Source: Moorena sp. SIO3A2 (lineage in GTDB: Bacteria; Cyanobacteriota; Cyanobacteriia; Cyanobacteriales; Coleofasciculaceae). From it: 64,000 nt of DNA. How positions within the stretch are numbered: the first letter of the stretch is position 1; the number at the start of each line of letters is the position of its first letter. The stretch lies in assembly GCF_010672265.1 (NCBI RefSeq), contig NZ_JAAHHC010000004.1, positions 6,161-70,160 of the forward strand, written 5' to 3'. Below the pieces are notes generated by a model, which worked only from the letters and a program-made list of their open reading frames with translations, made no database searches and had not been told where the DNA came from. Made by a program: the position numbers and the translations under genes. Positions 388-21,634 of this stretch are shown here, in pieces.

Positions 388-3300
388 TTGATTGGAGTAA
401 ACTCCATGGTTCAGGATTCATCGTCTCAAGGTGCTTTCAAGCAATATTTTGCTCAACAACTTGCCCAGACCCTGGGACAAGCACTCCCTCAACAAGAACT
501 CGACCGCTGCTTCAAGGGTATTAAAATTCTGGAACCAAGGGCAGGTAAGGGATTCTGGCAAGCAGGTAATGGAAATGTTGGCCTTTACATCGTTATGGCT
601 GGCAAAGTCAGGCTCCTTGATCAGCACAATAACTTACTGGCTTCCCTAGAAGCATCCAGCACCTTCGGCGAGCTGACCTTGTTTCCAGAAGAATCGTTTC
701 AGCCTTACACTGCCAGAGCTTCTGTCAAGCTCAAGCTTTGCTATCTTGCTGGTGAGTTGTTGCAGCCGTTGCTCCGTAACTATCCCAGCATCCGGGATCA
801 CCTCCATAGACAAGCAGTATTGCGGGATCTATTCTTATTGTGTCGTCGCAATGGTTTTTTCGAGAATCTACCCCGAGAAGGGTTACTTAAAACGCTATCG
901 CTATTAAAACCCTATACTCTGGAAGTGGGCACACTCCCAGATTATCTACTAAACAATCAAAGACTTTGGCTGCTCCGACACGGAGAGCTACTCCATGCTT
1001 CTGGCAAAACCCTCAATGCTGGCAGCATCTACACTCCCTCCCAGTTAAAGGAAGGAAACTCTTGGCAGGTGAGGATGCCAACTCAGCTATATAGTCTCAG
1101 CAATGGTGATAGCAAAATTGCCCTACTCCACTTGCCACAACTTAGTGAGCTGATTGAGTCTGATGCTACCCCATCGGCTAATGACCAACCTATTCCAGCA
1201 TTGGCTAAGACCTTGTCAGCTGTCGCAGCTTCTCAACCCTCTCCACAGCGAAAACCAAAGCCCAAGACCCGTCCAGTTTACTTTCCCAACCCCACAGTCA
1301 AAGTTAGCCATTGGTGGCAGCAAGTTACTCAAAGCTATCCGTTCTTTGCCCAACAGAGTTCCTCAGATTGTGGTGCTGCTTGTTTAGTGATGATCGGTCG
1401 CTACTGGGGTAAACGTTTCAGTGTTAATCGTTTGCGGGATGTTGCCAATGTTGACCGCAATGGCACATCACTACGAGGTCTAGCTACAGCAGCAGAAAGC
1501 ATCGGCTTTTCTACCCGACCGGTCAAAGCTAGTCTCGACCGATTGGCAAAAGAGAAACTGCCCGCTATTGCCCATTGGGAGGGGAAACACTACATCGTGG
1601 TCTATAAAGTGACTCGCGATCGCGTAATTGTAGGAGACCCTGCCATTGGTCAAAAAACCTTTAACCATTCCGATTTCAAAGCAAATTGGACTGGCTATGC
1701 CCTTCTGTTGCAACCGACAGCAATGCTCAAGGAAGCCAAGGAGGCGAGTGTTGCCTTCTGGCAGTTCTTTGAATTAATGAAACCTCACGGGCTGGTGCTT
1801 CTAGAGGTATTAATCGCATCTATCTTAGTTCAGATCTTCGGACTAGTTACACCTCTATTCACACAGCTATTGTTAGACCGGGTAATAGTGCAAGGTAGTA
1901 CCCTGACCTTAAACGCTGTTGGCTTAGGCTTGCTGCTGTTTGGCTTATTCCAAGTTGCCATGACTGGCTTGCGGCAATATTTGCTAGACCACACCGCTAA
2001 CAAAGTCGATCTGGCCTTGATTGTCGGCTTTATTCGCCATACCTTCCGATTACCCTTAAACTTCTTTGAGTCTCGTTTTGTCGGTGACATTGTCTCCCGC
2101 GTCCAGGAAAACCAAAAAATTCAAAGCTTCCTCACTGGCGAAGCTATATCAATCTTGCTCGACTTACTCACTGTTTTTGTCTACGTGAGTCTGATGTTTT
2201 GGTACAGCTGGAAACTGGCAGCGCTAGTGTTGTTAATTGTGCCGCCATTTTTCCTGCTGGCATTAATAGCCACCCCCTTCTTACGCCGGATTTCCCGAGA
2301 AATCTTCGATGCTTTAGTTAATCAAGAAAGCTATCTGATCGAAACCCTGACCGGGATTAACACAATTAAATCCATGGCAGTTGAACAAACAGTGCGCTGG
2401 CATTGGGAGGAACTCCTGAATAAGTCGATCAAAACTAGCTTTTCTGGACAAATCATCAGCAACCAGTTACAAATATTCAGTAATACTATCGAAACAGTTG
2501 CTACTACTACTCTGCTGTGGTATGGAGCGTGGCTGGTGATTCAAAACCAACTCACCATCGGTCAATTAGTCGCCTTTGATATGTTGCTAAATAATGTGAT
2601 GGACCCATTCCAGCGCATAACCGTGTTGTGGAATGAATTGCAGGAAGTTCTGATTGCAGTGGAACGCATCAATGATGTGCTGGATGCGGAACCAGAAGAA
2701 GATTTGCAGCAGCAACTTCGTCAATCGTTACCACAACTGAGGGGTCACATTCGCTTTGAGCAAGTCACCTTTCGTTATCACCCTCAAAGCGATATTAATG
2801 TACTCGAAAATCTCAGTTTTGAGGTCAAACCAGGGCAAATGGTAGCTCTAGTCGGTCGCAGTGGTTCAGGGAAAACCACCATTTCCAAATTAGTTTTGGG
2901 GCTTTATATCCCCACCGATGGCAAAGTGTTAATTGATGGTCAAGACATCACCAGTCTTTCCCTGCGCTCATTGCGGGAGCAAATTGGTGTAGTTAACCAA
3001 GATACATTTCTGTTTGGCAAAACCATTCGGGAAAACATTGCCATGGGTGATCCCTCAGCAACCCTAGCAGAAATTATGGAAGCAGCGCGACAGGCTGGTG
3101 CAGATGAGTTTATTAAACAGCTACCCATGGGTTATGAAACTCAGATTGGCGAGGGGGGTGGTATGTTATCTGGTGGTCAACGTCAGCGCCTAGCGATCGC
3201 CCGTGCTTTGGTAGGGAATCCCCGCTTGTTGATTTTAGATGAAGCCACCAGCAACCTCGATGCTGAATCCGAGCGCATCATTCAAACTAACTTCAACTCA

Positions 3301-3486
3301 ATTTTGAAAAGTCGAACCACCTTAGTTATTGCTCATCGCCTCTCTACCGTGCGCCAAGCTGATGTAATTCTAGTACTTGATCGAGGAATCTTGGTCGAAA
3401 GTGGTAACCACGAGGCATTGATGGCTAAGCGTGGTCACTACTTCTATCTCAATCAGCAACAACTGACTATTGCTGTTGCTGATTGA
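388..3486 (+). CDS. Bacteriocin/type I secretion ABC transporter with N-terminal cyclic-nucleotide-binding domain, C39 peptidase domain, six-TM permease and ATPase (HetC-like)
   Basis: 1032-aa ORF; C39 motif QQSSSDCGAACLVMIGRYWGK; Walker A GRSGSGKTT; ABC signature LSGGQRQR; Walker B LILDEATS; N-terminal region resembles a cNMP-binding fold. Confidence 0.9.
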   Translation: MIGVNSMVQDSSSQGAFKQYFAQQLAQTLGQALPQQELDRCFKGIKILEPRAGKGFWQAGNGNVGLYIVMAGKVRLLDQHNNLLASLEASSTFGELTLFPEESFQPYTARASVKLKLCYLAGELLQPLLRNYPSIRDHLHRQAVLRDLFLLCRRNGFFENLPREGLLKTLSLLKPYTLEVGTLPDYLLNNQRLWLLRHGELLHASGKTLNAGSIYTPSQLKEGNSWQVRMPTQLYSLSNGDSKIALLHLPQLSELIESDATPSANDQPIPALAKTLSAVAASQPSPQRKPKPKTRPVYFPNPTVKVSHWWQQVTQSYPFFAQQSSSDCGAACLVMIGRYWGKRFSVNRLRDVANVDRNGTSLRGLATAAESIGFSTRPVKASLDRLAKEKLPAIAHWEGKHYIVVYKVTRDRVIVGDPAIGQKTFNHSDFKANWTGYALLLQPTAMLKEAKEASVAFWQFFELMKPHGLVLLEVLIASILVQIFGLVTPLFTQLLLDRVIVQGSTLTLNAVGLGLLLFGLFQVAMTGLRQYLLDHTANKVDLALIVGFIRHTFRLPLNFFESRFVGDIVSRVQENQKIQSFLTGEAISILLDLLTVFVYVSLMFWYSWKLAALVLLIVPPFFLLALIATPFLRRISREIFDALVNQESYLIETLTGINTIKSMAVEQTVRWHWEELLNKSIKTSFSGQIISNQLQIFSNTIETVATTTLLWYGAWLVIQNQLTIGQLVAFDMLLNNVMDPFQRITVLWNELQEVLIAVERINDVLDAEPEEDLQQQLRQSLPQLRGHIRFEQVTFRYHPQSDINVLENLSFEVKPGQMVALVGRSGSGKTTISKLVLGLYIPTDGKVLIDGQDITSLSLRSLREQIGVVNQDTFLFGKTIRENIAMGDPSATLAEIMEAARQAGADEFIKQLPMGYETQIGEGGGMLSGGQRQRLAIARALVGNPRLLILDEATSNLDAESERIIQTNFNSILKSRTTLVIAHRLSTVRQADVILVLDRGILVESGNHEALMAKRGHYFYLNQQQLTIAVAD

Positions 3487-3499
3487 AATCCTAATTAAA

Positions 3500-3557
3500 G
3501 GGAATAGGGAACAGGGAACAGCGGATCTGGGAATCGGGAATCGGGAATCGGGAATCG
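3500..3557. repeat. Tandem heptamer array GGGAAYMG/GGGAATC; reverse complement of the CCCTACT/CCCGATT array 160 nt downstream
   Basis: Direct repeat reading. Confidence 0.8.
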
Positions 3558-11821: not shown

Positions 11822-11893
11822 GCGGGTGTAATTCAGTGGTAGAATGTCAGCTTCCCAAGCTGAACGTCGTCGGTTCGAGTCCGATCACCCGCT
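11822..11893 (+). tRNA. tRNA-Gly (anticodon CCC)
   Basis: GCGGGTGTAATTCAGTGGTAGAAT...CTTCCCAAG anticodon loop...GGTTCGAGTCCGATCACCCGCT; cloverleaf nearly identical to bacterial tRNA-Gly(CCC). Confidence 0.9.
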
Positions 11894-12126
11894 TGTTGAT
11901 TTGTAAGCATTCAGCGGTCAGCTAATGCGCTACGGGCACGCTGTCTTGATGGGGAGCAGGTCAAATAAGCCTAACAAATGAACTACTTGACAAAACAACA
12001 AAAATCATGTTATTGAGCCGGTCTTAGTTGCAGAACAGATGAACTATTTACCAGATCAGCTTGGCTTTTACCCATGAGGGGGCTATAGATAATGTACAAA
12101 TATTAGGCATTAGTGACATGCTCCCC

Positions 12127-12246
12127 CTATTACCTATTACCTATTACCCATTACCCATTACCCATCACCCATTACCCATTCCCCATTCCCCATTCCCCAT
12201 TCCCCATTCCCCATTCCCCATTCCCCATTCCCCATTCCCCATTCCC
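12127..12246. repeat. TTACCCA / TTCCCCA heptamer tandem array (about 17 copies)
   Basis: Direct reading. Confidence 0.9.
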
Positions 12247-12868: not shown

Positions 12869-12914
12869 AGGTGCGACCCGTGGCGAATTTAATTCGCCAA
12901 CGGAAAGCGCACCT
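12869..12914. mobile_element. Copy B of the palindromic MITE-like element (near-consensus copy AGGTGCGACCCGTGGCGAATTTAATTCGCCAACGGAAAGCGCACCT)
   Basis: Terminal inverted repeats AGGTGCG/CGCACCT with an internal palindrome GGCGAATT|TAATTCGCC. Confidence 0.65.
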
Positions 12915-12922
12915 AAGGTTTT

Positions 12923-12971
12923 AGGGAGCAGGGAGCAGGAAGCAGGGAAGAGGGAAGAGGGAAGAGGGAAA
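12923..12971. repeat. GGGAGCA/GGGAAGA heptamer tandem repeat
   Basis: Direct reading. Confidence 0.8.
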
Positions 12972-13186
12972 AAAATATGTGTACCTGATGAGGCTAAAAA
13001 GCGCTATATGGATAAATCTCGCACTAAAATTGGTCGATTTTGATTAATGTCATTCGTATAAATTTGACACTTAGGACAGTTAATTACTTCATTTAATAAA
13101 TCCAAATTCAATATTATAAATTATTCTTTTTTATAAGAAGTGAACACGGTTACATTCGGTAAATTTAACAAAGTATAGCAGAAGTC

Positions 13187-13214
13187 AGAAGTCAGAAGTC
13201 AGAAGTCAGAAGTT
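13187..13214. repeat. CAGAAGT heptamer tandem repeat (reverse complement of the GACTTCT family)
   Basis: Direct reading. Confidence 0.8.
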
Positions 13215-13633
13215 AAACTCTTGCCATACTGTAGTTTGAGACTTTTGTCATGTCCTAATTACCCTGGCGACTGCTATATCTAGATGAAAGTCCATCCGTC
13301 GGTTAACAGCATTTAGTATTACTAGCTACATTTTACACCATATTGCCGGAAGAGCCATTCCGGTCTAAAATTTGTTTTAACATCTTGAAATAGACTTGGT
13401 TGGTTACCTTTTCAAGCAGCTATATAATCCTTGCCACTGTTGACGATAAATTCACAAGTTTTTTTTGGGTATTAATAGCATCATTGGCATTGACAACTCC
13501 TTTTAGAGCCAGTTTCTTGAGCAACTCTGGTAAAGCTTTAATTTCGTTGGTTTTGGCATCAACTTCAAAGGGTTCTAAAATCAAGCCCCGCTCAACAATG
13601 TAAGAACTGACCAACATAATTGCTGGGTTTGAA

Positions 13634-13729
13634 GTTACCGTAAGAGAGGGTCGCCTTTATAGGAACAGGTTATGGGTAATAGTTTTAAGTTATATGAAAT
13701 AAGGCGACCCTCTCTAAGGTTTCGTCTCC
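13634..13729 (+). mobile_element. Hairpin element H1: GTTACCGTAAG-[19-bp stem AGAGGGTCGCCTTTAT...ATAAGGCGACCCTCT]-CTAAGGTTTCGTCTCC; IS200/IS605-like palindromic miniature element
   Basis: Direct reading; the same architecture occurs at 4 more loci, including one inside the tnpB pseudogene. Confidence 0.6.
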
Positions 13730-13885
13730 TTGGGAGTCGGAATTGGGATTATCGTTTTCAATCTGATCTGAACCTTTAAGGACTTTGCCGTCTAAGCCAA
13801 TGGTTTCTCCAGAAGCTGGTTGTACATTCAAGAATGCGCGCAAGGCACATCGAATACTCTTCGTAATTAATATACAATAAAACAC

Positions 13886-13936
13886 GACGTAAGTAGGTGG
13901 GCTTAATAAGGCGACCCTCTCTAAGGTTTCGTCTCC
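13886..13936 (+). mobile_element. Degenerate/partial copy H2 of the hairpin element (right half ATAAGGCGACCCTCTCTAAGGTTTCGTCTCC intact)
   Basis: Direct reading. Confidence 0.45.
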
Positions 13937-13970
13937 GGGAAGGCTTTTGAAACGGCAAGAAGGGTTTGAA

Positions 13971-14068
13971 GTTACCCTAAGATAGGGTAACTTCAAACGT
14001 TGGTAGGTTATGGGTAAAAGGTAACGGCGCTTTTGTAGTAAGGCGACCCTATCTTAGGTTTCGTTTCC
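13971..14068 (+). mobile_element. Degenerate copy H3 of the hairpin element (GTTACCCTAAG...TAAGGCGACCCTATCTTAGGTTTCGTTTCC)
   Basis: Direct reading; loop shares GGTTATGGGTAA with H1. Confidence 0.45.
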
Positions 14069-14310
14069 GGAAATGCACTCCGCAGTGGTCTTACCTTCGG
14101 CGTAGCCGACGCTTCGCGAACAGAGATGGAGATTTGTTGGAAAAGCACCATATAATACCACGCGCACTGGATGGAAATAATTCAGACAAAAATCTCGAAT
14201 TATTACACCTACATTGCCATGATGCCAAACACGGAAGCAAAACCAACTCAAAAGAGTTAGATGAAAATCCGTTCTAGAGGAGCCAATGTCAAGGATTGTA
14301 CTGTAATGAT

Positions 14311-14345
14311 GAGCCGTATGATGCGAAAGTATCACGTACGTTTTT
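14311..14345 (+). ncRNA. Sequence resembling group II intron domain V (GAGCCGTATGATGCGAAAGTATCACGTACGTTTTT), probably a fragment of an intron with no maturase gene
   Basis: GAGC...GAAA tetraloop...ACGUACG pattern with an AC bulge, matching the domain V consensus GAGCCGUAUGCG-GAAA-CGCACGUACGG apart from one mismatch; lies in a non-coding region. Confidence 0.35.
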
Positions 14346-14543
14346 GAAGACGAGTCAGAGGTGACTCACTGGCTTAGTTTAATGAAGCCCGCGCTGTACC
14401 GTGCTTGTCAGCGTCGGGAGTATGTCACTAGAAAACCATTTCATCCCCGCTTTCCCTAAGGTATAGCAGAAGTCATTTGTCAGAAGTCAAACTCTTGCGC
14501 TTCTTGATGCAATAGCGAGTGGGGGAAACCCCCAAGACCGCTT

Positions 14544-14589
14544 AGGTGCGCTTTCCGTTGGCGAATTAAATTCGCCACGGGTCGCACCT
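14544..14589. mobile_element. Copy C of the palindromic MITE-like element (reverse orientation)
   Basis: AGGTGCGCTTTCCGTTGGCGAATTAAATTCGCCACGGGTCGCACCT. Confidence 0.65.
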
Positions 14590-15164
14590 CTGCATCGCTT
14601 ACAAAGGGTGTGAGACTAATGTCGATGTCCTAACTGCCCTGGCGACTGCTATAGCAATAGAGTGGCGGGCTGCTGCTTTCGATATCGATTTTGTAGGAGT
14701 ATGGCTGGTCAGCTCACTCCTGATCAAAAATACTCTTGGCTTTTATATGTTGCAGATGCTCATCTTCCTGTTGCTCTGGCTAGTTACGGTAGTCGTGCTA
14801 TTATACACCAATCCGGCTCAGAGTTTAGGGTAGTGGGCTTTCGGTTATCTTGATTCTTGAGGTTAGATTCGTTACCCTTGCACCGGTTACTGACTCTAAC
14901 TAAACTGGAGAGCATGGTTGGCTTCGCTGCACTAAAGCGCGATGATGATTGGCTTGATTGGTCTAGCTAATCGCATTTCAAGGATACTACTGTGGGCTGC
15001 CCTTGTCAGTGACCAGATTGCCCTGCACGATGATGGTGCCAACAAGGCGTGAGGTTTTTCCCGAGACTTGAGCAATTTTGCATCTACTTGATAGACTGGG
15101 GCATCCCATGAGATAATAGTAAATTGTGTTTAATTGTAATATTTGAGTTCTTAGAAAAAAAACT

Positions 15165-15359
15165 ATGGCAAGTAAGAAAGGTGTCCGAATCGTTATTACT
15201 CTAGAATGTACTGAATGTCGCAGTTACTCCAATAAGCGCTCGGCTGGTGTTTCCCGCTATACCACTAGGAAGAATCGCCGTAACACATCATCACGTCTGG
15301 AACTGAAGAAATTTTGCACCCATTGCAACAAGCACATGATTCACAAAGAAATCAAATAG
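15165..15359 (+). CDS. rpmG: 50S ribosomal protein L33
   Basis: 64 aa; [15 protein letters not shown]...[11 protein letters not shown]...LELKKFC matches L33. Confidence 0.9.
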
Positions 15360-15660
15360 ATTTGGTCCTTGGTCATTTGTGAATTGAATTTGTTAATTGA
15401 AAATGGACTATTGACAAAGAACAAGCAACAAAGAACAAGTATTCAGCTTATGTGCTACGCACACGCGTGCGCGTTCAGCGGTCAGCTATCAGCGGTCAGC
15501 TCAAGTAACTCAGCTTAAACCAATGCTTACCTGTTTTATTGTAAGCATTCAGTGGTCAGCCGTGAACATTGGCCTTTGAGTCACGCTACGCGAATGGCTC
15601 ACTCTACTTCAGGTGCCGTCAGAATAAAAGAAACCTAAGCAGCTTAAGTAGCGTGCTAAT

Positions 15661-15737
15661 AGCTCATAAGCTGATAACTGATAGCCCATAAGCTGATAAC
15701 TGATAACTGATAGCTGATAGCTGATAGCTGATAGCTG
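15661..15737. repeat. GATAGCT/GATAACT heptamer tandem array in the rpmG-rpsR intergenic region
   Basis: Direct reading. Confidence 0.8.
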
Positions 15738-15812
15738 AATACTTACCAAAGAACAAATGACTATAATCAGTAACCAGTAACCTAAATAACCAATCACCAA
15801 TCACAACCAATC

Positions 15813-16028
15813 ATGACTTACTTTCGTAAACGTCTCTCTCCGATCAAACCCGATGAACCGATCGACTATAAAGATGTTGAGTTGCTGCGCAAGTTTATCA
15901 CTGAACGGGGAAAAATCCTACCCCGCCGCATTACTAATCTAACGACTCAACAACAACGAAAGCTAACCACAGCCATTAAGCGAGCAAGGTTCTTGGCTTT
16001 GCTACCCTATATTAATAAAGAAGGTTAA
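15813..16028 (+). CDS. rpsR: 30S ribosomal protein S18
   Basis: 71 aa; [50 protein letters not shown] matches S18. Confidence 0.9.
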
Positions 16029-16089
16029 GGTGAACAATCACGGTCTTCCTCTGGGATATTTCCCGTGTGAAGAATGAAATATCAAATAA

Positions 16090-16121
16090 GAAGGATGAAG
16101 GATGAAGGATGAAGGATGAAA
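16090..16121. repeat. GAAGGAT heptamer tandem repeat
   Basis: Direct reading. Confidence 0.8.
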
Positions 16122-16250
16122 TGGGGTGATCGATGGCTGAGGCGCGCGATGCAGTGGCCTCACGGGGAATTCCCCCACTCGCGCTCTGCATCAAGACATG
16201 GTTAACTAAAAACTTGCGACCCAACCAGGAGTTACACTGACCACTGACAA

Positions 16251-16281
16251 CTTCAGACTTCAGACTTCAGACTTTAGACTT
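16251..16281. repeat. CAGACTT heptamer tandem repeat
   Basis: Direct reading. Confidence 0.8.
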
Positions 16282-16371
16282 GACCCCGTCTGCTGAGTTG
16301 GGTATCTCAACAACACAGGATAGACTGGGGGGAGGTGGATTTGGTAAACGCTACCCGGGTTATCAGAACTG

Positions 16372-18429
16372 GTGGAAAAGGGAACACTAATCGAATTTCG
16401 CTTACAAGGAGAACGCCATCTCGCTGTTGTCGATCGTCCAGAGGGCAAGAACCACTTGATTGCTTTGGATCAACGGGGGAAACTGCACAAGCTCCATCCT
16501 CGACAAGTCACCTACACAGTGGCAGATTCTACTTATGAGCCATCACAAATACCAGAGTTTATTGCTCGAGTACAACCCTATCTAGACCCAGATAGCTTAG
16601 AATTAGCTTGGGAATTACTGGTGGAAGAAGGAGAGGCGGTTACCTGTGCTGACATGGCACAGTTATTATTTTCTGAGCAAAGTCCACCCCAGTGCTATGC
16701 GGCACACTGTATTCTGTTTGAAGACAAAATCTATTTTAAACAAAAAGCACAAACCTATGAACCCCGCTCCGCTAGCATGGTGGCTGAAATCAAGCATCAA
16801 CTGGCAGCGGCTCAATCAAAGCACCAGGAACAAGAAGAATTTTTGAAGCGAGTACAGCAAAAGTTAGGGGGTGAGCAAGTAGAGTGGGTTGATAGCGATC
16901 GCACTCGCTTTGATGCTCTAGAACGGTTCGTTAGTGAACCAGATAAACCATCTCGTGCAGTTCAGGAAACTCTGGAAGCACTAAAACGCCCTCAAAACCC
17001 AGAAAATGCCTTCGATTTATTGATAAATTTGGGTTTGTGGCGTCCTCACCAGAAGTACTTGCTGCGTCATAAAATCCCAACTCAATTTCGTCGTGAGGTA
17101 CTCGAATTGACCCAGCAATACCTGGCAAATCCTCCTACTGACCCAGATTCAGATCGCTTGGATTTAACTCATCTGAAACTCTACACCATAGATGATGAAA
17201 GTACCCAAGAAATAGATGATGGTTTGAGTATAGAAGATCTAGAGGATGGCACTCAGCGTCTGTGGATTCACATCGCTGACCCAACCCGCTTGGTAATGCC
17301 AGGGGATAATCTTGACCTAGAAGCACGACGGCGTAGTACCACCATATATCTACCCACGGGCATGATTCCCATGTTCCCATCGGAACTGGCAACTGGTCCA
17401 ATGAGTTTGGTTCAAGGTCAAGTCTGTGGCGCACTCAGTTTTGGCGTGATCTTGGATCAAGATGGTGCCATCTATGACTATCAGATTCACCCCAGCCTGA
17501 TTAAACCCACCTATCGCCTGACTTATGAAGATGTAGATGAAATGTTGCAGTTAGGGGTACAGGCAGAAACAGAACTGTTTGCGATCGCTAACTTGGCTGT
17601 GCGTCGGCAAAAGTGGCGCAAGTCTCAGGGGGCGATTAGCATCCATATGCCAGAGTCGGTAATCAAGGTGGGAAATGATGACCAAATTACCATTGAGGTG
17701 TTAGAAGATTCACCATCACGGCAAATGGTGGCAGAAATGATGATTCTGGCAGGTGAAGTGGCTGGACGCTATGGTCAAGCGCACCAAATTCCACTACCAT
17801 TCCGAGGACAACCCCAGCCAGAACTTCCATCCCAAGAAGAACTGCTGCTATTGCCAGCCGGTCCAGTGCGGTTCTGTGCCATGCGTCGGTGTATGCCTAG
17901 AAGCGAAATGAGCATTACCCCAACACGCCACGCTAGTTTGGCTTTGGAAACTTACACCCAGGTAACCTCTCCGATCCGCCGCTACACTGACTTAATGACT
18001 CATTTCCAGCTGAAAGCTCATCTACGGGGTGACCCCCTACCCTTTGAAGCTGAAGATTTGCTCGAAACGATGCAGAGTGTAACCAGAACAGCTAAGGATG
18101 CTAGTGAAGTAGAACGTGATACCAACAAATATTGGGGATTGGAATATTTGCGGCGTAACCCGAATCAGGTTTGGCAAGTATTAGTACTCAGTTGGTGGCG
18201 AGAAAACGAGAATAAGGGCAACATTCTCCTAGAAGAGTTAGGTCTAGAATTGCCCATGCGTTTCCAGCGTTCGGTTCAATTAGGCGATCGCTTACACGTC
18301 AAAGTCAGTCATGCTGATCCCCGTAAAGAAGTTATTCATTTTCAAGAACTAGCGAACTCAGAGGCTCAGCTTCCTTTTAACTCAAAGCTAGAAGATGGCT
18401 CAGCTTCTGCTGTGAACAGATTCGCGTAA
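16372..18429 (+). CDS. RNase II/RNase R family 3'-5' exoribonuclease (RNB domain)
   Basis: 685-aa ORF; RNB catalytic region (TIDDESTQEIDDGLSI, TSPIRRYTDL); downstream of rpmG-rpsR as in other cyanobacteria. Confidence 0.85.
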   Translation: MEKGTLIEFRLQGERHLAVVDRPEGKNHLIALDQRGKLHKLHPRQVTYTVADSTYEPSQIPEFIARVQPYLDPDSLELAWELLVEEGEAVTCADMAQLLFSEQSPPQCYAAHCILFEDKIYFKQKAQTYEPRSASMVAEIKHQLAAAQSKHQEQEEFLKRVQQKLGGEQVEWVDSDRTRFDALERFVSEPDKPSRAVQETLEALKRPQNPENAFDLLINLGLWRPHQKYLLRHKIPTQFRREVLELTQQYLANPPTDPDSDRLDLTHLKLYTIDDESTQEIDDGLSIEDLEDGTQRLWIHIADPTRLVMPGDNLDLEARRRSTTIYLPTGMIPMFPSELATGPMSLVQGQVCGALSFGVILDQDGAIYDYQIHPSLIKPTYRLTYEDVDEMLQLGVQAETELFAIANLAVRRQKWRKSQGAISIHMPESVIKVGNDDQITIEVLEDSPSRQMVAEMMILAGEVAGRYGQAHQIPLPFRGQPQPELPSQEELLLLPAGPVRFCAMRRCMPRSEMSITPTRHASLALETYTQVTSPIRRYTDLMTHFQLKAHLRGDPLPFEAEDLLETMQSVTRTAKDASEVERDTNKYWGLEYLRRNPNQVWQVLVLSWWRENENKGNILLEELGLELPMRFQRSVQLGDRLHVKVSHADPRKEVIHFQELANSEAQLPFNSKLEDGSASAVNRFA

Positions 18430-18591
18430 ATCTCTGTCCTTTTATAAAAATCCCCCAAAGCCGAAAACCCCGTGTCTAATGACCGGGGATGAAGGCTCAC
18501 AGCGGCTTGACGCGCCTAGAAAAATATTTCAGGAAAATCCGGAATTTTAGTCTGGATGTTGTAAAATAAGGGAGTGAACAGTTTAGGTCCC

Positions 18592-18687
18592 AGACGAAAC
18601 CTTAGAATAGGGTCGCCTTTATGGTTTGTCGGCTATGGAAAAAGGGTTAAAACTGTTGTTATAAGGCGACCCTATTCTTACGGTAAC
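18592..18687 (-). mobile_element. Hairpin element H4 (reverse orientation) just upstream of tnpB; probable left-end subterminal palindrome of the IS200/IS605-family element
   Basis: GACGAAACCTTAG-[AATAGGGTCGCCTTTAT...ATAAGGCGACCCTATT]-CTTACGGTAAC; loop about 90% identical to the loop of H5. Confidence 0.55.
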
Positions 18688-18705
18688 TTTAAGAAGCTGA
18701 TGATC

Positions 18706-20046
18706 ATTTTAGAGTTCAAGGCGAAAGGAAAAAAACATCAATACTCTGGGATCAACGAGGCTATCCGGACAGTCCAGTTCATCCGTAATAGCTGCCTCAG
18801 GTATTGGATGGAAAATAAAGGGGTCAACAAATTTGACCTTAATAAGTACAGTGCAGTCCTTGCTAAAAACTTTCCTTTTGCTAATGAATTAAACTCTACT
18901 GCTCGTCAGTCTAGTGCTGAAAGAGCATGGTCATCAATTGTTCGATTCTTTGATAACTGCAAGAAAAAAGTACCTGGAAAGAAAGGTTTTCCTAAGTTCC
19001 AGAAAAACTGCCGCTCAGTGGAGTATAAACAGTCTGGATGGAAGTTATCCCCTGACAAGAAGTCAATCACCTTTAGTGATAAAAAGGGTATTGGGAAGCT
19101 TAAGCTTAAAGGTAGATGGGACTTGTGGCGCTTGGATAAAAAGGAAATAAAGCGAGTCCGTATAGTTCGCCGGGCTGATGGTTATTATGTCCAGTTTTGT
19201 GTTTCAGTTGATATCAAAGAGGAACTAGAGCCAAGTGGGACAGCTATCGGCTTGGATGTTGGACTAAAATATTTTTACACTGATTCCGCTGGAAAAACTG
19301 AACCAAATCCCTGCTTTTACAGAACGGGAGAAAAACGCCTTAAGTTCTACCAGCGTCGAGTTTCTCGCAAGAAGAAAGGCTCATCCAATCGAAATAAAGC
19401 AGTTAATAGACTAGGCAGACAGCACCTTAAGATAAGTAGGCAACGTGAAGAGAACGCCAAGAGACTGGGAACGAAGTTACCGTAAGAATAAAGAAGCCTT
19501 TATGGTTAGTCGGCTATGCATAAAAGGGTTAAATCTTTGTTATTAAGGCTTCTTTATTCTAAGGTTTCGTCTCCGGCGCGCTGCGTAATCTGTTCTAACG
19601 ATCTGGTCGCCTAGGTCGACTTAAGAGCCAAGAACCTAGTAAAAAATCACTGCCTCGCTAAGTCTATTAATGATGCAGGTTGGTATCAGTTTAGGAAATG
19701 GATGGAGCACTTTGGCACCAAGTTCGGAAAGGTAACAGTTGCAGTAAATCCTGCATATACCAGCCAAAACTGTTCCAATTGTGGCGAAGAAGTTAAAAAG
19801 TCCCTATCAACTAGGACTCATACGTGCAAGTGTGGTTGTCAGTTAGATAGAGACCACAACGCCGCAATAAACATCCTTAAGAAAGCCTTGGGTACGGTGG
19901 GGCACACCGGAACCTGGATCTTAAAATATCTAAACGCTTCAGGAGAATCGGCCTCTACTGTTCTTGGTTCCGGCCAGGTTCAGCAAGCTGGCTCGTTGAA
20001 TGAAGAATCCCCGCGTATGCGCGACCGGGGAGTGTCAAAAAACTAG
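18706..20046 (+). pseudogene. tnpB: IS200/IS605-family TnpB (OrfB, RNA-guided endonuclease family) gene, disrupted between 19486 and 19700 by a nested hairpin element and local rearrangement
   Basis: N-terminal part (to 19485) and C-terminal part (19702-20046, with the zinc finger CSNCG...CKCGC and a RuvC-III-like NAAINI motif) lie in different frames, separated by element H5 and an in-frame stop. Confidence 0.75.
19476..19574 (+). mobile_element. Hairpin element H5 inserted within tnpB (GTTACCGTAAG-[AATAAAGAAGCCTTTAT...ATTAAGGCTTCTTTATT]-CTAAGGTTTCGTCTCC)
   Basis: Direct reading; same flanks as H1, loop like H4. Confidence 0.55.
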
Positions 20047-20059
20047 AAAGCTTGCTTTG

Positions 20060-21634
20060 ATGTCTCGACATAAGTACAAGAGATTAAAACACCAAATCAT
20101 CCGGGTACCGAGCCGTTGGTACTTCTGCCTATCTTTGGCTATTACCATCCTGCTGGGATGGCTTGGTGTAGCAGTAGCACAAGATAGTAACACGAATAAT
20201 TTCACTAACCTGTCTACTATCTGGTTGTTAGTTTCATCTTTTCTAGTCTTTTTTATGAATGCTGGCTTTGCCATGTTAGAAGCCGGGTTATGTAGACGGA
20301 GAAATGCGACTAATGTCTTGGCTAAAAATTTGATAGTTTTCTGTATATCAGCCTTAGCCTTTTGGCTAGTTGGCTTTGGCTTAATGTTTGGTGATGGCAT
20401 CACTTACAGTTGTGTTCCAGGAGAAAATAATAGTTTAAGTTTAGTGGGTCAAAAGGGGTTGTTTTTTAATCTTCCCTTTCCCCAATTTGGAAATCTTGGT
20501 TTTCCAGAATCAGGATTTAATTGTCTCAATCAAGATTGGTCTAATCGCTCCTTTGCGGCTCTATTTTTATTTCAGTTAGTCTTTGCTGGAACTGCAGCCA
20601 CTATTGTTTCAGGAGCTGTTGCTGAACGGGTAAAATTCTGGGCATTTCTCCTATTTAGTTTTTTCCTGGTTGGTTTTATCTATCCCGTAACCGGTCACTG
20701 GGTTTGGGGACACTATGGTTGGCTAGCCAAGGCGCTAAAATTTCATGATTTTGCGGGTTCAACTGTAGTCCATAGTGTTGGTGGTATGGCTGGCTTGGTA
20801 GGGGCTTGGCTACTAAAGCCACGACAAGGTCGTTTTGGCTACAATTTAAGAACAGATAGATATGAAGGTCTCGAAACTGAAAAGTTCTCTGCCGATAATC
20901 TGGGTTTAGCCACCTTAGGCTGCTTAATTCTTTGGCTGGGCTGGTTTGGTTTTAATGGTGGCTCAGCAAAGGATCTCGATTATGTAGCTAATACCATCAC
21001 AACTACCATGATGGCAGCAGCAGCTGGTGGAATATCCAGCGTATTTTTTAGTCCAATTATCCTGGGAAAACCCAGTCTAGCCTCAATTATCAATGGCATT
21101 TTAGGTGGGTTGGTGGGAATTACAGCCTCAGCTGCTTTTGTAGATATCAAAAGTGCATTTATAATTGGCTCTATCAGCGGTATTTTTGTCCTTTTAGGCG
21201 AATATTTTCTACAAGTTTGGAAAATTGACGACCCCGTAGGTTCGATTCCTGTTCACCTTTTCTGTGGATTTTGGGGAACGATTGCCTTAGGAATCTTTAG
21301 TAGCAATAGTTCTCTGTTGTACTCGGAACTTGATGTATATGACGATCCATTATTACAAGTGTTGTGTCAGTTCTTAGGCTGGCTGATTATTATCATTGTA
21401 ACAGCTCTATTGAGTTTATTAGGTTGGCTATTAGTTAGCCTAATTTTATATTATGCAAGCCATATCAATGAGCGGATTAGCGGCAAACAACGCCATAGGA
21501 AACAATTACGTCAAACCCAATATTTTCAATTGGGAGAATTTATCTTAACTATTTTTGAAATTGCTCGTCGAGGAATTAGGGTATCTTTGGAAGAAGAAAT
21601 CAGTGGTAGCGATGGAGTTTTTTATAATCCTTAG
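20060..21634 (+). CDS. amt: Ammonium transporter (Amt/MEP family)
   Basis: About 524 aa; signal-peptide-like N-terminus; FAMLEAGL motif; about 11 TM segments; the ORF starting upstream at 20000 overlaps the tnpB remnant and is unlikely to be the real start. Confidence 0.85.
   Translation: MSRHKYKRLKHQIIRVPSRWYFCLSLAITILLGWLGVAVAQDSNTNNFTNLSTIWLLVSSFLVFFMNAGFAMLEAGLCRRRNATNVLAKNLIVFCISALAFWLVGFGLMFGDGITYSCVPGENNSLSLVGQKGLFFNLPFPQFGNLGFPESGFNCLNQDWSNRSFAALFLFQLVFAGTAATIVSGAVAERVKFWAFLLFSFFLVGFIYPVTGHWVWGHYGWLAKALKFHDFAGSTVVHSVGGMAGLVGAWLLKPRQGRFGYNLRTDRYEGLETEKFSADNLGLATLGCLILWLGWFGFNGGSAKDLDYVANTITTTMMAAAAGGISSVFFSPIILGKPSLASIINGILGGLVGITASAAFVDIKSAFIIGSISGIFVLLGEYFLQVWKIDDPVGSIPVHLFCGFWGTIALGIFSSNSSLLYSELDVYDDPLLQVLCQFLGWLIIIIVTALLSLLGWLLVSLILYYASHINERISGKQRHRKQLRQTQYFQLGEFILTIFEIARRGIRVSLEEEISGSDGVFYNP

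Follow-up and report, generated by a model that had tools for sequence, protein, structure and literature searches.

Insertion sequences of the IS607 family lack terminal inverted repeats, cause no target duplication, have GG termini, and insert into an invariant GG target, with a preference for (G)GG, through a circular intermediate whose departure leaves a resealed donor (PMC6188088; PMC4058570). In cyanobacteria, "type II" MITEs (miniature transposable elements with inverted repeats) without a known parent have been described, among them MaeMITEa-h of Microcystis and the MITEs of Anabaena sp. 90 (PMC2779907; PMC3542288). Our search of the literature returned such cyanobacterial MITEs of unknown parentage, but no miniature (non-autonomous) element of the IS607 type. 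Here, we analyse a family of short, hairpin-bearing repeats, five loci of which (H1 to H5) lie in a 64,000-nt stretch of Moorena sp. SIO3A2 (GCF_010672265.1, contig NZ_JAAHHC010000004.1, positions 6,161–70,160 of the forward strand), called the window below. We consider it fairly probable that they belong to a non-autonomous family of transposable elements, specific to Moorena-type cyanobacteria, that moves by serine recombination with IS607 chemistry supplied in trans. A first-pass annotation of this DNA had taken them for a MITE derived from IS200/IS605; the proposal of a miniature, non-autonomous mobile element was right, but the mechanistic class differs. Membership of the repeat, its boundaries, the filled and empty sites, the junctions with GG, the flip of the loop, the alleles of the arms, and the recurrence of sites are seen directly in the sequences; serine recombination, the circle, and what causes the loop flip and the hot spot are inferred.

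The family was scanned for with an exact 16-mer in one genome per species, which matched at least 117 loci. Among the matches listed, all those with the full layout were found in Moorena (M. producens 3L, M. bouillonii PNG, and several SIO assemblies), and in the matches from other phyla the remainder of the element was missing. In the 0.93 Mb of DNA that was fetched, on which the family counts given here are based and whose sampled loci carry L-numbers (L001, L032, etc.), 89 full-length copies were counted in 49–56 distinct flanking contexts, and these further copies share the flanks and the structure of those in the window, so that an outcome which, by the first-pass annotation, would have refuted it (copies lacking conserved flanks or structure) did not occur. 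The element is non-coding, about 107 bp long, and consists of GG, TTWGAA (or TCAGAA, or GAACGAA), GTTACCGYAAG, an arm 11–13 nt long, a loop of some 47 nt, the arm's complement, CTAAGGTTTCGTCTCC, and GG, its full bounds being GG-TTWGAAGTTACCG ... AGGTTTCGTCTCC-GG. The left flank is almost without variation across copies; the invariance of the right flank is partly a product of the probe used, and variant right ends (CTAAGGCGCGCGTCTCT, ..GGTTTCTATCC) occur. Both flanks accompany the loop in 65 of its 77 matches, and a variant flank in 10 of them; since the loop is hardly ever found without flanks, the element is a single unit rather than a hairpin set into some other host sequence. Its ends are asymmetric (GGTTWGAAGTTACCGYAAG versus CTAAGGTTTCGTCTCCGG), with inverted symmetry at 7 of 10 positions only and no terminal inverted repeats. 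When the ends are joined, as GGTTTCGTCT-CC-GG-TT-AGAAGTTACC, an imperfect dyad (7/10) around GG can be read directly.

The boundaries were defined by pairs of filled and empty sites. In unique contexts (L066/L011, L037/L114, L021/L083, and L114/L112), the filled site reads flank-GG-element-GG-flank and the empty one flank-GG-flank, and many further pairs were found in repeated contexts. In addition, two copies of a tnpB-carrying insertion sequence (IS), from strain 3L (L032) and from a metagenome scaffold (L133), are 98–99% identical; the element is present in only one of them, and where the alignment breaks the two sides overlap by 2 nt, GG. Across 49 distinct contexts, GG/GG was found in 30 and CC/CC in none, which, together with the single GG at empty sites, is a signature of the IS607 type and not of IS200/IS605. 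Matching dinucleotides on both sides were detected in only one of the non-GG contexts (TC/TC). Copies at any given recurrent site all have the same orientation. Thus, as in IS607, orientation is fixed by an asymmetric dinucleotide (30 GG/GG versus 0 CC/CC), and GG stands at both junctions without a target duplication. A G follows the GG in 27 of 55 contexts, the flanks otherwise carrying little information; the conserved 4–5 nt target that the first-pass annotation had suggested looking for did not appear, and the flank profiles of the 55 contexts show GG only, on both sides. An extended motif, G[AT][AT]ACC after the GG, was found in 5 of 56 contexts against a background of 1.8%, but it was recognised post hoc and four of the five come from one repeat family, so it was set aside as a lead only. 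Two automated scans for ortholog pairs gave no pairs, the flanks of shared sites being ~10% diverged, and head-to-tail dimers with one shared GG were looked for and none was found.

We propose that the element would move by conservative cut-and-paste recombination across the 2-bp GG overlap, with an IS607-family serine transposase acting in trans. The two ends would be brought together and the element would leave as a circle, whose junction of right end, GG, and left end (..GGTTTCGTCTCC-GG-TTWGAAGTTACC..) would form an imperfect dyad centred on GG. The donor would be resealed to a single GG, and the circle would then recombine with another (G)GG, the asymmetric dinucleotide fixing the orientation of insertion and leaving GG on both sides without true duplication. 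At the level of sequence, the exactness of the empty sites agrees with a circular intermediate and with resealing of the donor. A 2-bp overlap suits a serine recombinase better than a tyrosine recombinase. Candidate enzymes are present: in Moorena, about 50 of the 120 clusters listed bear the name "IS607 family transposase", L037, L112, and L114 encode serine transposases that combine a MerR-type helix-turn-helix with a Resolvase domain, and intact Moorena IS607 copies have GG/GG junctions like those of the element. In M. producens PAL (CP017599; L122, 3460–5250), an intact IS607 with a tnpA of 195 aa and a tnpB of 354 aa lies inside a host hydrolase open reading frame (ORF), with the junctions caccaaaGG|CTTGTGACAG...AAAAGTATC|GGtcacact. 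Across this insertion, the host ORF reads ..IPVPGHTKG|HTVLLYNNKF.., and the empty site deduced from it has a single GG.

Several observations weigh against this proposal. Its main weakness is that no autonomous partner with matching ends was found among the eight Moorena IS607 copies inspected (L037, L112, L114, L118, L122, L134, L135-137, and L138). These copies share ends of their own (GG-N5-6-GACAGTTAxC ... GGTAGCTAAAAAGTATC-GG), which are not significantly similar to those of the element and resemble them only loosely (AGTTA; GTMTC beside GG). The full-length partner that the first-pass annotation had thought worth looking for did not turn up either, as no left and right ends 0.3–4 kb apart were found in the fetched DNA, and each "solo" left end turned out to be a copy with one of the two variant right ends. 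Furthermore, IS607 is reported to be nearly without target preference beyond GG, whereas the element reuses particular sites; about 40% of the contexts lack GG on one or both sides; and some nested insertions are not clean GG events. Finally, a GG-restricted 2-bp target duplication and a 2-bp crossover are not strictly separable by sequence alone. The element thus behaves like IS607 but cannot be classed as a derivative of the Moorena IS607 copies inspected.

In the window, when up to 3 mismatches are allowed, the right flank CTAAGGTTTCGTCTCC has five matches where 0.46 would be expected, a number that no shuffle out of 100 attained, and the left flank GTTACCGTAAG has four where 0.82 would be expected; the repeat is genuine and cannot be put down to chance. 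The first-pass annotation had described five loci with the same layout and with stems that always pair exactly. This stands for H1, H4, and H5, which are intact, with perfect stems of 15–16 bp, an unpaired loop of 43 nt in the centroid fold, and fold z values from −3.2 to −5.6, but not for H2, which is truncated, nor for H3, which is rearranged. The elements reach 8 nt further left (GGTTWGAA) than first described, and most copies have GG at both junctions. H1 (13626–13729, plus strand; hairpin part 13634–13729) is complete, with GGTTTGAA, GTTACCGTAAG, the arm AGAGGGTCGCC, the loop, the complementary arm, and CTAAGGTTTCGTCTCC; its stem is of 15 bp and perfect (z = −4.7), and its right junction has TT instead of GG. 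H2 (13886–13938, plus strand; previously 13886–13936), truncated or internally deleted, has kept nothing but the right arm (GGCGACCCTCT), the flank on that side, and its junction GG, and has neither a stem nor a match to the left flank. In H3 (13963–14070, plus strand; previously 13971–14068), the reverse complement of the left end GGTTTGAAGTTACCCTAAGATAGGG comes directly after it, this end making a palindrome of its own (GTTTGAAGTTACCCTA/TAGGGTAACTTCAAAC), and the arms agree over 7 nt only; nothing is rearranged in the right half, whose flank has 2 mismatches and whose junction GG is at 14069–14070.

The other two copies lie in the tnpB IS. H4 (18590–18695, minus strand; hairpin part 18590–18687) is complete, with the arm AATAGGGTCGCC, a flipped (R) loop, and degenerate ends (TTCTTAAA on the left and ..GTCTGG on the right). 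As had been noted, it is placed just upstream of the tnpB ATG (18700), about 100 nt inside the IS left end; however, it is not the left-end hairpin of that IS, which is found at 18468–18488. H4 is missing at this position from the homologous IS copies L133, L032, and L001, so it is an insertion and not an end hairpin. H5 (19468–19575, plus strand; hairpin part 19476–19574) is complete, of 108 nt, with the arm AATAAAGAAGCC and an F-orientation loop, and its insertion into tnpB, already recognised in the first-pass annotation, is precise: it lies at the GG of the codons for Leu-Ala (..AGACTG^GCG..), the alignment with the uninterrupted paralogue L001 breaks at window positions 19466/19576, and both L001 and L113 are without it. 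The near-identity reported for the H4 and H5 loops is likewise correct, holding on the plus strand although the flanks of the two copies are oppositely oriented, as an instance of a loop flip that extends to the whole family.

Analysis of this flip showed the loop in one orientation in 36 copies and as the exact reverse complement in 38. The arms, in turn, comprise 35 distinct 12-nt sequences in 73 distinct copies, with 2–4 types of Watson-Crick pair at each position, 84–99% pairing, and G.T no more frequent than other mismatches. That stems differ between copies yet remain complementary is true of the family, 73 of the 89 copies having perfectly complementary 13-nt arms. In six of the imperfect copies, two arm alleles are joined as an exact chimera, in most of them the common pair with GTGGAGCC on one side and GGGTCGCC on the other (3 mismatches), and at equivalent sites in ~10%-diverged copies of one host repeat the arms are A/A (L005), B/B (L041), and A/B (L088), with an almost identical loop. 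Such allele combinations, the unfavoured G.T pairs, and a loop inverted in half of the copies speak against the compensatory change under selection for structure that had been deduced from the stems; they point to DNA inversion or conversion, which fits arms and loop better than a selected RNA fold. The central hairpin would act as a DNA inverted repeat, and recombination or template switching between its arms would flip the loop and keep the arms complementary. Arm complementarity is thus presumably maintained through exchange between copies and through events between inverted repeats in the DNA, namely inversion, conversion, or template switching. In plastid DNA, hairpin loops that lie between short inverted repeats have been described to undergo flip-flop inversion.

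The tnpB gene that carries H5 (18700–20046, plus strand, from the spliced translation) belongs to the OrfB_IS605 plus Cas12f1-like TNB type, as judged from the Pfam match of a paralogue, and gives 73.6% in tblastn with the TnpB of L042. In addition to H5, it has an in-frame TAG at 19612–19614, and therefore this tnpB copy is decayed. Both ends of its IS carry the CCCCG..CGGGG hairpin expected of IS200/IS605: the left-end subterminal hairpin CCCCGTGTCTAATGACCGGGG (18468–18488, plus strand) has the same stem as the right-end hairpin and is conserved in L133, L032, and L001, and the right-end hairpin CCCCGCGTATGCGCGACCGGGG (20009–20030) is followed by the terminus ..GAGTGTCAA at 20038 (20009–20038 in all, plus strand). 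The similarity between L133 and L032 runs from ~150 nt upstream of tnpB and stops at ..GGGGAGTGTCAA.

The GG occupied by H5 (..AAGAGACTG^GCACGTTGCG..; T1 site ..AAGAGACTGGCACGTTGCGTAAT..) is occupied in at least 10 tnpB paralogues with 70–82% nucleotide identity to the window copy. When the element is removed exactly, seven of eight interrupted paralogues yield one intact ORF of 385–438 aa. In L072, L058, and L102, the elements are identical (105 nt) in tnpB genes only 61–72% alike over aligned segments that include unrelated flanks, and those of L042, L032, and L061 have 1–2 nt differences; identical elements in such diverged genes mean that the element has been mobile recently. The uninterrupted TnpB paralogues form more than 100 clusters of ~403 aa, and the GG is kept (CTGGCA) in four of five that were sampled independently, so the site is preferred but not saturated. 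We infer that this one GG is a strongly preferred site. Other accounts of the recurrence were considered and rejected. Escape of some tnpB copies by lack of the GG was suggested by the first two uninterrupted copies, which had TTG, but not by the independent ones. Gene conversion between paralogues is unlikely, as the flanks of L072, L058, and L102 differ within 4–7 nt of the junction. An ancient, inherited insertion does not agree with identical elements in genes that are 61–72% alike (70–82% in the coding region by BLAST) and still intact, nor with L032 and L133, which differ by the element.

Beyond tnpB, the copies are depleted from coding sequence. Only 18% of them have 60 or more codons free of stops on both sides, versus 46% of random points in the same loci. 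Each copy within an ORF whose gene could be identified lay in a gene of a mobile element, and no copy was found in an identified gene of the host. The interrupted genes include three kinds of TnpB, IS607 tnpA, IS607 tnpB, a group II intron reverse transcriptase (two sites), and IS4/IS5-type transposases, and some copies are antisense within ORFs. The IS607 serine transposase gene is interrupted at ..IEYLV^GLNGG.. (L037, 4222–4716; L112; L114, 2438–2541), and IS607 tnpB at one recurrent site (L135–L137, ~3290–3500), with a second copy of the element nested in the loop of the first in L136. In L001 (766–865), L021, L047, L084, L085, and L094, the tnpB IS has the element within its left-end hairpin, in the 3' arm (CCCCGCGTTTTTAAACCGG^GG; ACCGG^GG), where it would disable that IS, since recognition of the end by its transposase should be lost. 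Such a distribution would remain if purifying selection acted on insertions into host genes, and copies would persist mainly in intergenic DNA and within other mobile elements. A further step would be to see in the family a hyperparasite, that is, a serine-recombinase mini-element, the first non-autonomous member of the IS607 class to be described, living on other mobile DNA, which would dock by preference in the RNA-guided nuclease gene tnpB and, in other elements, in the left-end hairpin and in transposase and reverse-transcriptase genes; with exact excision, those mobile-element genes would be switched off reversibly. We regard this extension as doubtful and put it forward tentatively.

Other repeats and a sub-variant were noticed in the course of this work. 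The 107-bp element has landed most often (..CATGG^GGGAAACC..) in short units, GGGGAAACC(A/C)C..GCAGTCGCTCATGG and GGGGGAACCCCCAAGACCGCGCTGC, which are repeated in runs (window ~14520–14545, and many loci, e.g., L004, L007, and L081). A second palindromic repeat of 44 bp, GGTGCGACCCGTGGCGAATTTAATTCGCCAACGGAAAGCGCACC, occurs in the window at 12870–12913 (plus strand) and 14545–14588 (minus strand), and in L011, L051, L039, L101, and others. It gave 40 strand-wise matches in the fetched DNA, which correspond to fewer distinct copies because palindromic copies match both strands, and several loci have it inside the loop of the 107-bp element, always at the same position (TAAAAG^GGTTAAAAC). A rare sub-variant of the element itself (L058, 5746; L136, ~3330–3440) ends in ..GTCTTT, starts with TT(T)TAAAG or TTTGAAG, and inserts away from GG; it has either decayed ends or another overlap dinucleotide, as a separate lineage.

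The proposal of serine-type recombination has to be weighed against other explanations, beginning with that of the first-pass annotation, in which the element would be a palindrome-associated transposable element (PATE) derived from IS200/IS605, mobilised as single-stranded DNA by a Y1 TnpA via subterminal hairpins and inserted 3' of a 4–5 nt target. It agrees with the copies found in or next to an IS with genuine IS200/IS605-type end hairpins, with the strong hairpin, and with the lack of a long target duplication. However, the element has a single central hairpin, with freely variable arms (35 variants), and not two end hairpins; its comparison with the ends of the tnpB IS (blastn-short) gave 7-mers only (E = 4.6), with no significant similarity; GG on both flanks replaces a one-sided tetra- or pentanucleotide in the 55 context profiles; and elsewhere it sits within the stem of the IS left-end hairpin, which it would destroy. 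The derivation from IS200/IS605 is thus largely refuted, and we hold it to be very improbable. A MITE of a DDE transposase with a 2-bp GG duplication, in which the imperfect symmetry of the ends (AGAAGTTACC versus AGACGAAACC, 7/10) would represent terminal inverted repeats, would account for GG on both sides and for that weak symmetry, and cyanobacterial MITEs lacking a known parent are common (PMC3542288; PMC2779907). Its symmetric reaction predicts CC/CC about as often as GG/GG, though, and the counts are 0 and 30; duplicated dinucleotides of other sequence are essentially absent, TC/TC being the lone match, and the terminal bases differ between the ends, TT.. at the left and GG.. at the right when read inwards. 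A DDE-type origin is therefore unlikely in our opinion.

The arms and the intact tnpB frames raise another possibility, namely that the element is a structured RNA, or is cut out of the tnpB transcript in the manner of an intron, with selection for RNA pairing preserving its stem. The stems do co-vary, and exact removal does restore seven of eight paralogues, but the intact ORFs are explained by recent insertion, as in the 98–99% identical IS pair with and without the element, and removal at the RNA level is not required. The loop is complemented 1:1, which a functional RNA would not tolerate, and G.T pairs are not favoured; copies are antisense in some ORFs, the identified host genes are all mobile, and ORFs are depleted of copies (18% versus 46%). 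Moreover, Rfam searches of both strands, at gathering and at permissive thresholds, detected no RNA family on the elements, only a chance miRNA match far below threshold. Structured RNA, which the first-pass annotation had offered as an alternative, is thus disfavoured and appears to us extremely improbable. As an outcome that would refute it, that annotation had named ordinary intrinsic terminators, and no terminator-like site was found within any copy. An equally slight chance is given to a REPIN-like doublet of inverted repetitive extragenic palindromes (REPs), spread by a REP-associated tyrosine transposase (RAYT) of the HUH type. The size of ~100 bp, the high copy number, and the folding of the whole element into one long imperfect hairpin would suit it; intragenic copies, defined GG junctions, and precise empty sites would not, and the conserved parts are asymmetric flanks instead of two inverted REPs. 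No RAYT gene turned up, though no search aimed at RAYT was made.

Regarding the surroundings of the window copies, the genes around H4 and H5 are those for RNase II (16372–18429), the tnpB IS, and an ammonium transporter. The mechanical ORF 20000–21634 begins within the right end of the tnpB IS and its ammonium-transporter domain starts further in, the true start codon of the transporter probably lying downstream of the IS terminus at 20038. Upstream, there is decayed mobile DNA, including an HNH-coding fragment of a group II intron protein (~14115–14290; Pfam HNH, 2.2e-10) and group II intron domains V/VI (14309–14383, plus strand; Rfam RF00029, 46.9 bits), which together are a decayed group II intron adjoining H1 to H3. 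H1 itself splits an ORF remnant on the minus strand at 13400–13830 (..DGKVLKGSDQIENDNPNSDSQ | ..ERGLILEPFEVDAKTNEIKALPELLKKLALKGVV..), which has no Pfam match and which we take to resemble ISAs1-type transposases. A tRNA was detected by Rfam at 11822–11893, and heptamer tandem repeats of CCCATTA/CCCCATT, GGGAGCA/GGGAAGA, and AGAAGTC at 12113–12245, 12925–12965, and 13176–13215; such heptamer repeats are common in filamentous cyanobacteria. Comparison of the window at 55.7 kb with L087 revealed different inserts in the two genomes and was uninformative for the element.

If the GG-to-GG mechanism is true, this family would be a miniature element of the serine-transposase class, its insertions would be reversible through scarless excision, and the exact reuse of one GG in diverged tnpB genes would be a natural instance of a preference for sites among enzymes credited with nearly none. 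For annotation, many Moorena genes for tnpB, IS607 tnpA, IS607 tnpB, and group II reverse transcriptases are split and will be called as fragments. The arms also hold a caution, as perfect covariation in a repeat family can come from DNA inversion or conversion without a selected RNA structure.

Compared with known systems, the element has the defining features of neither an IS200/IS605 PATE nor a terminal-inverted-repeat, DDE-type MITE. Like PATEs, it is small, bears a hairpin, lacks a long target duplication, and is found near tnpB; but PATEs have conserved left-end and right-end hairpins, whereas the element has one central hairpin with variable arms, no one-sided target of 4–5 nt, and no similarity to the adjoining IS ends. 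With plastid flip-flop inversion it shares a loop in both orientations at ~1:1 and perfectly complementary arms, but here the inversion takes place within a mobile element and whole arm alleles are also exchanged between copies. The cyanobacterial type II MITEs are, in the same way, short, present in many copies, and able to form hairpins; they lie mostly between genes but interrupt some, transposase genes among them (PMC2779907; PMC3542288); they are defined by terminal inverted repeats, in contrast to the asymmetric conserved ends and GG/GG junctions of the element. From the IS607 family, it differs in its size of ~107 bp, in coding for nothing, in having ends other than those of the Moorena IS607 copies inspected, in its central invertible hairpin, and in its reuse of particular target sites. 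However, it is to this family that it corresponds in the absence of terminal inverted repeats, GG at both junctions, the preference for (G)GG, the locked orientation, and the precise empty sites, and autonomous copies with the same type of junction are abundant in Moorena genomes.

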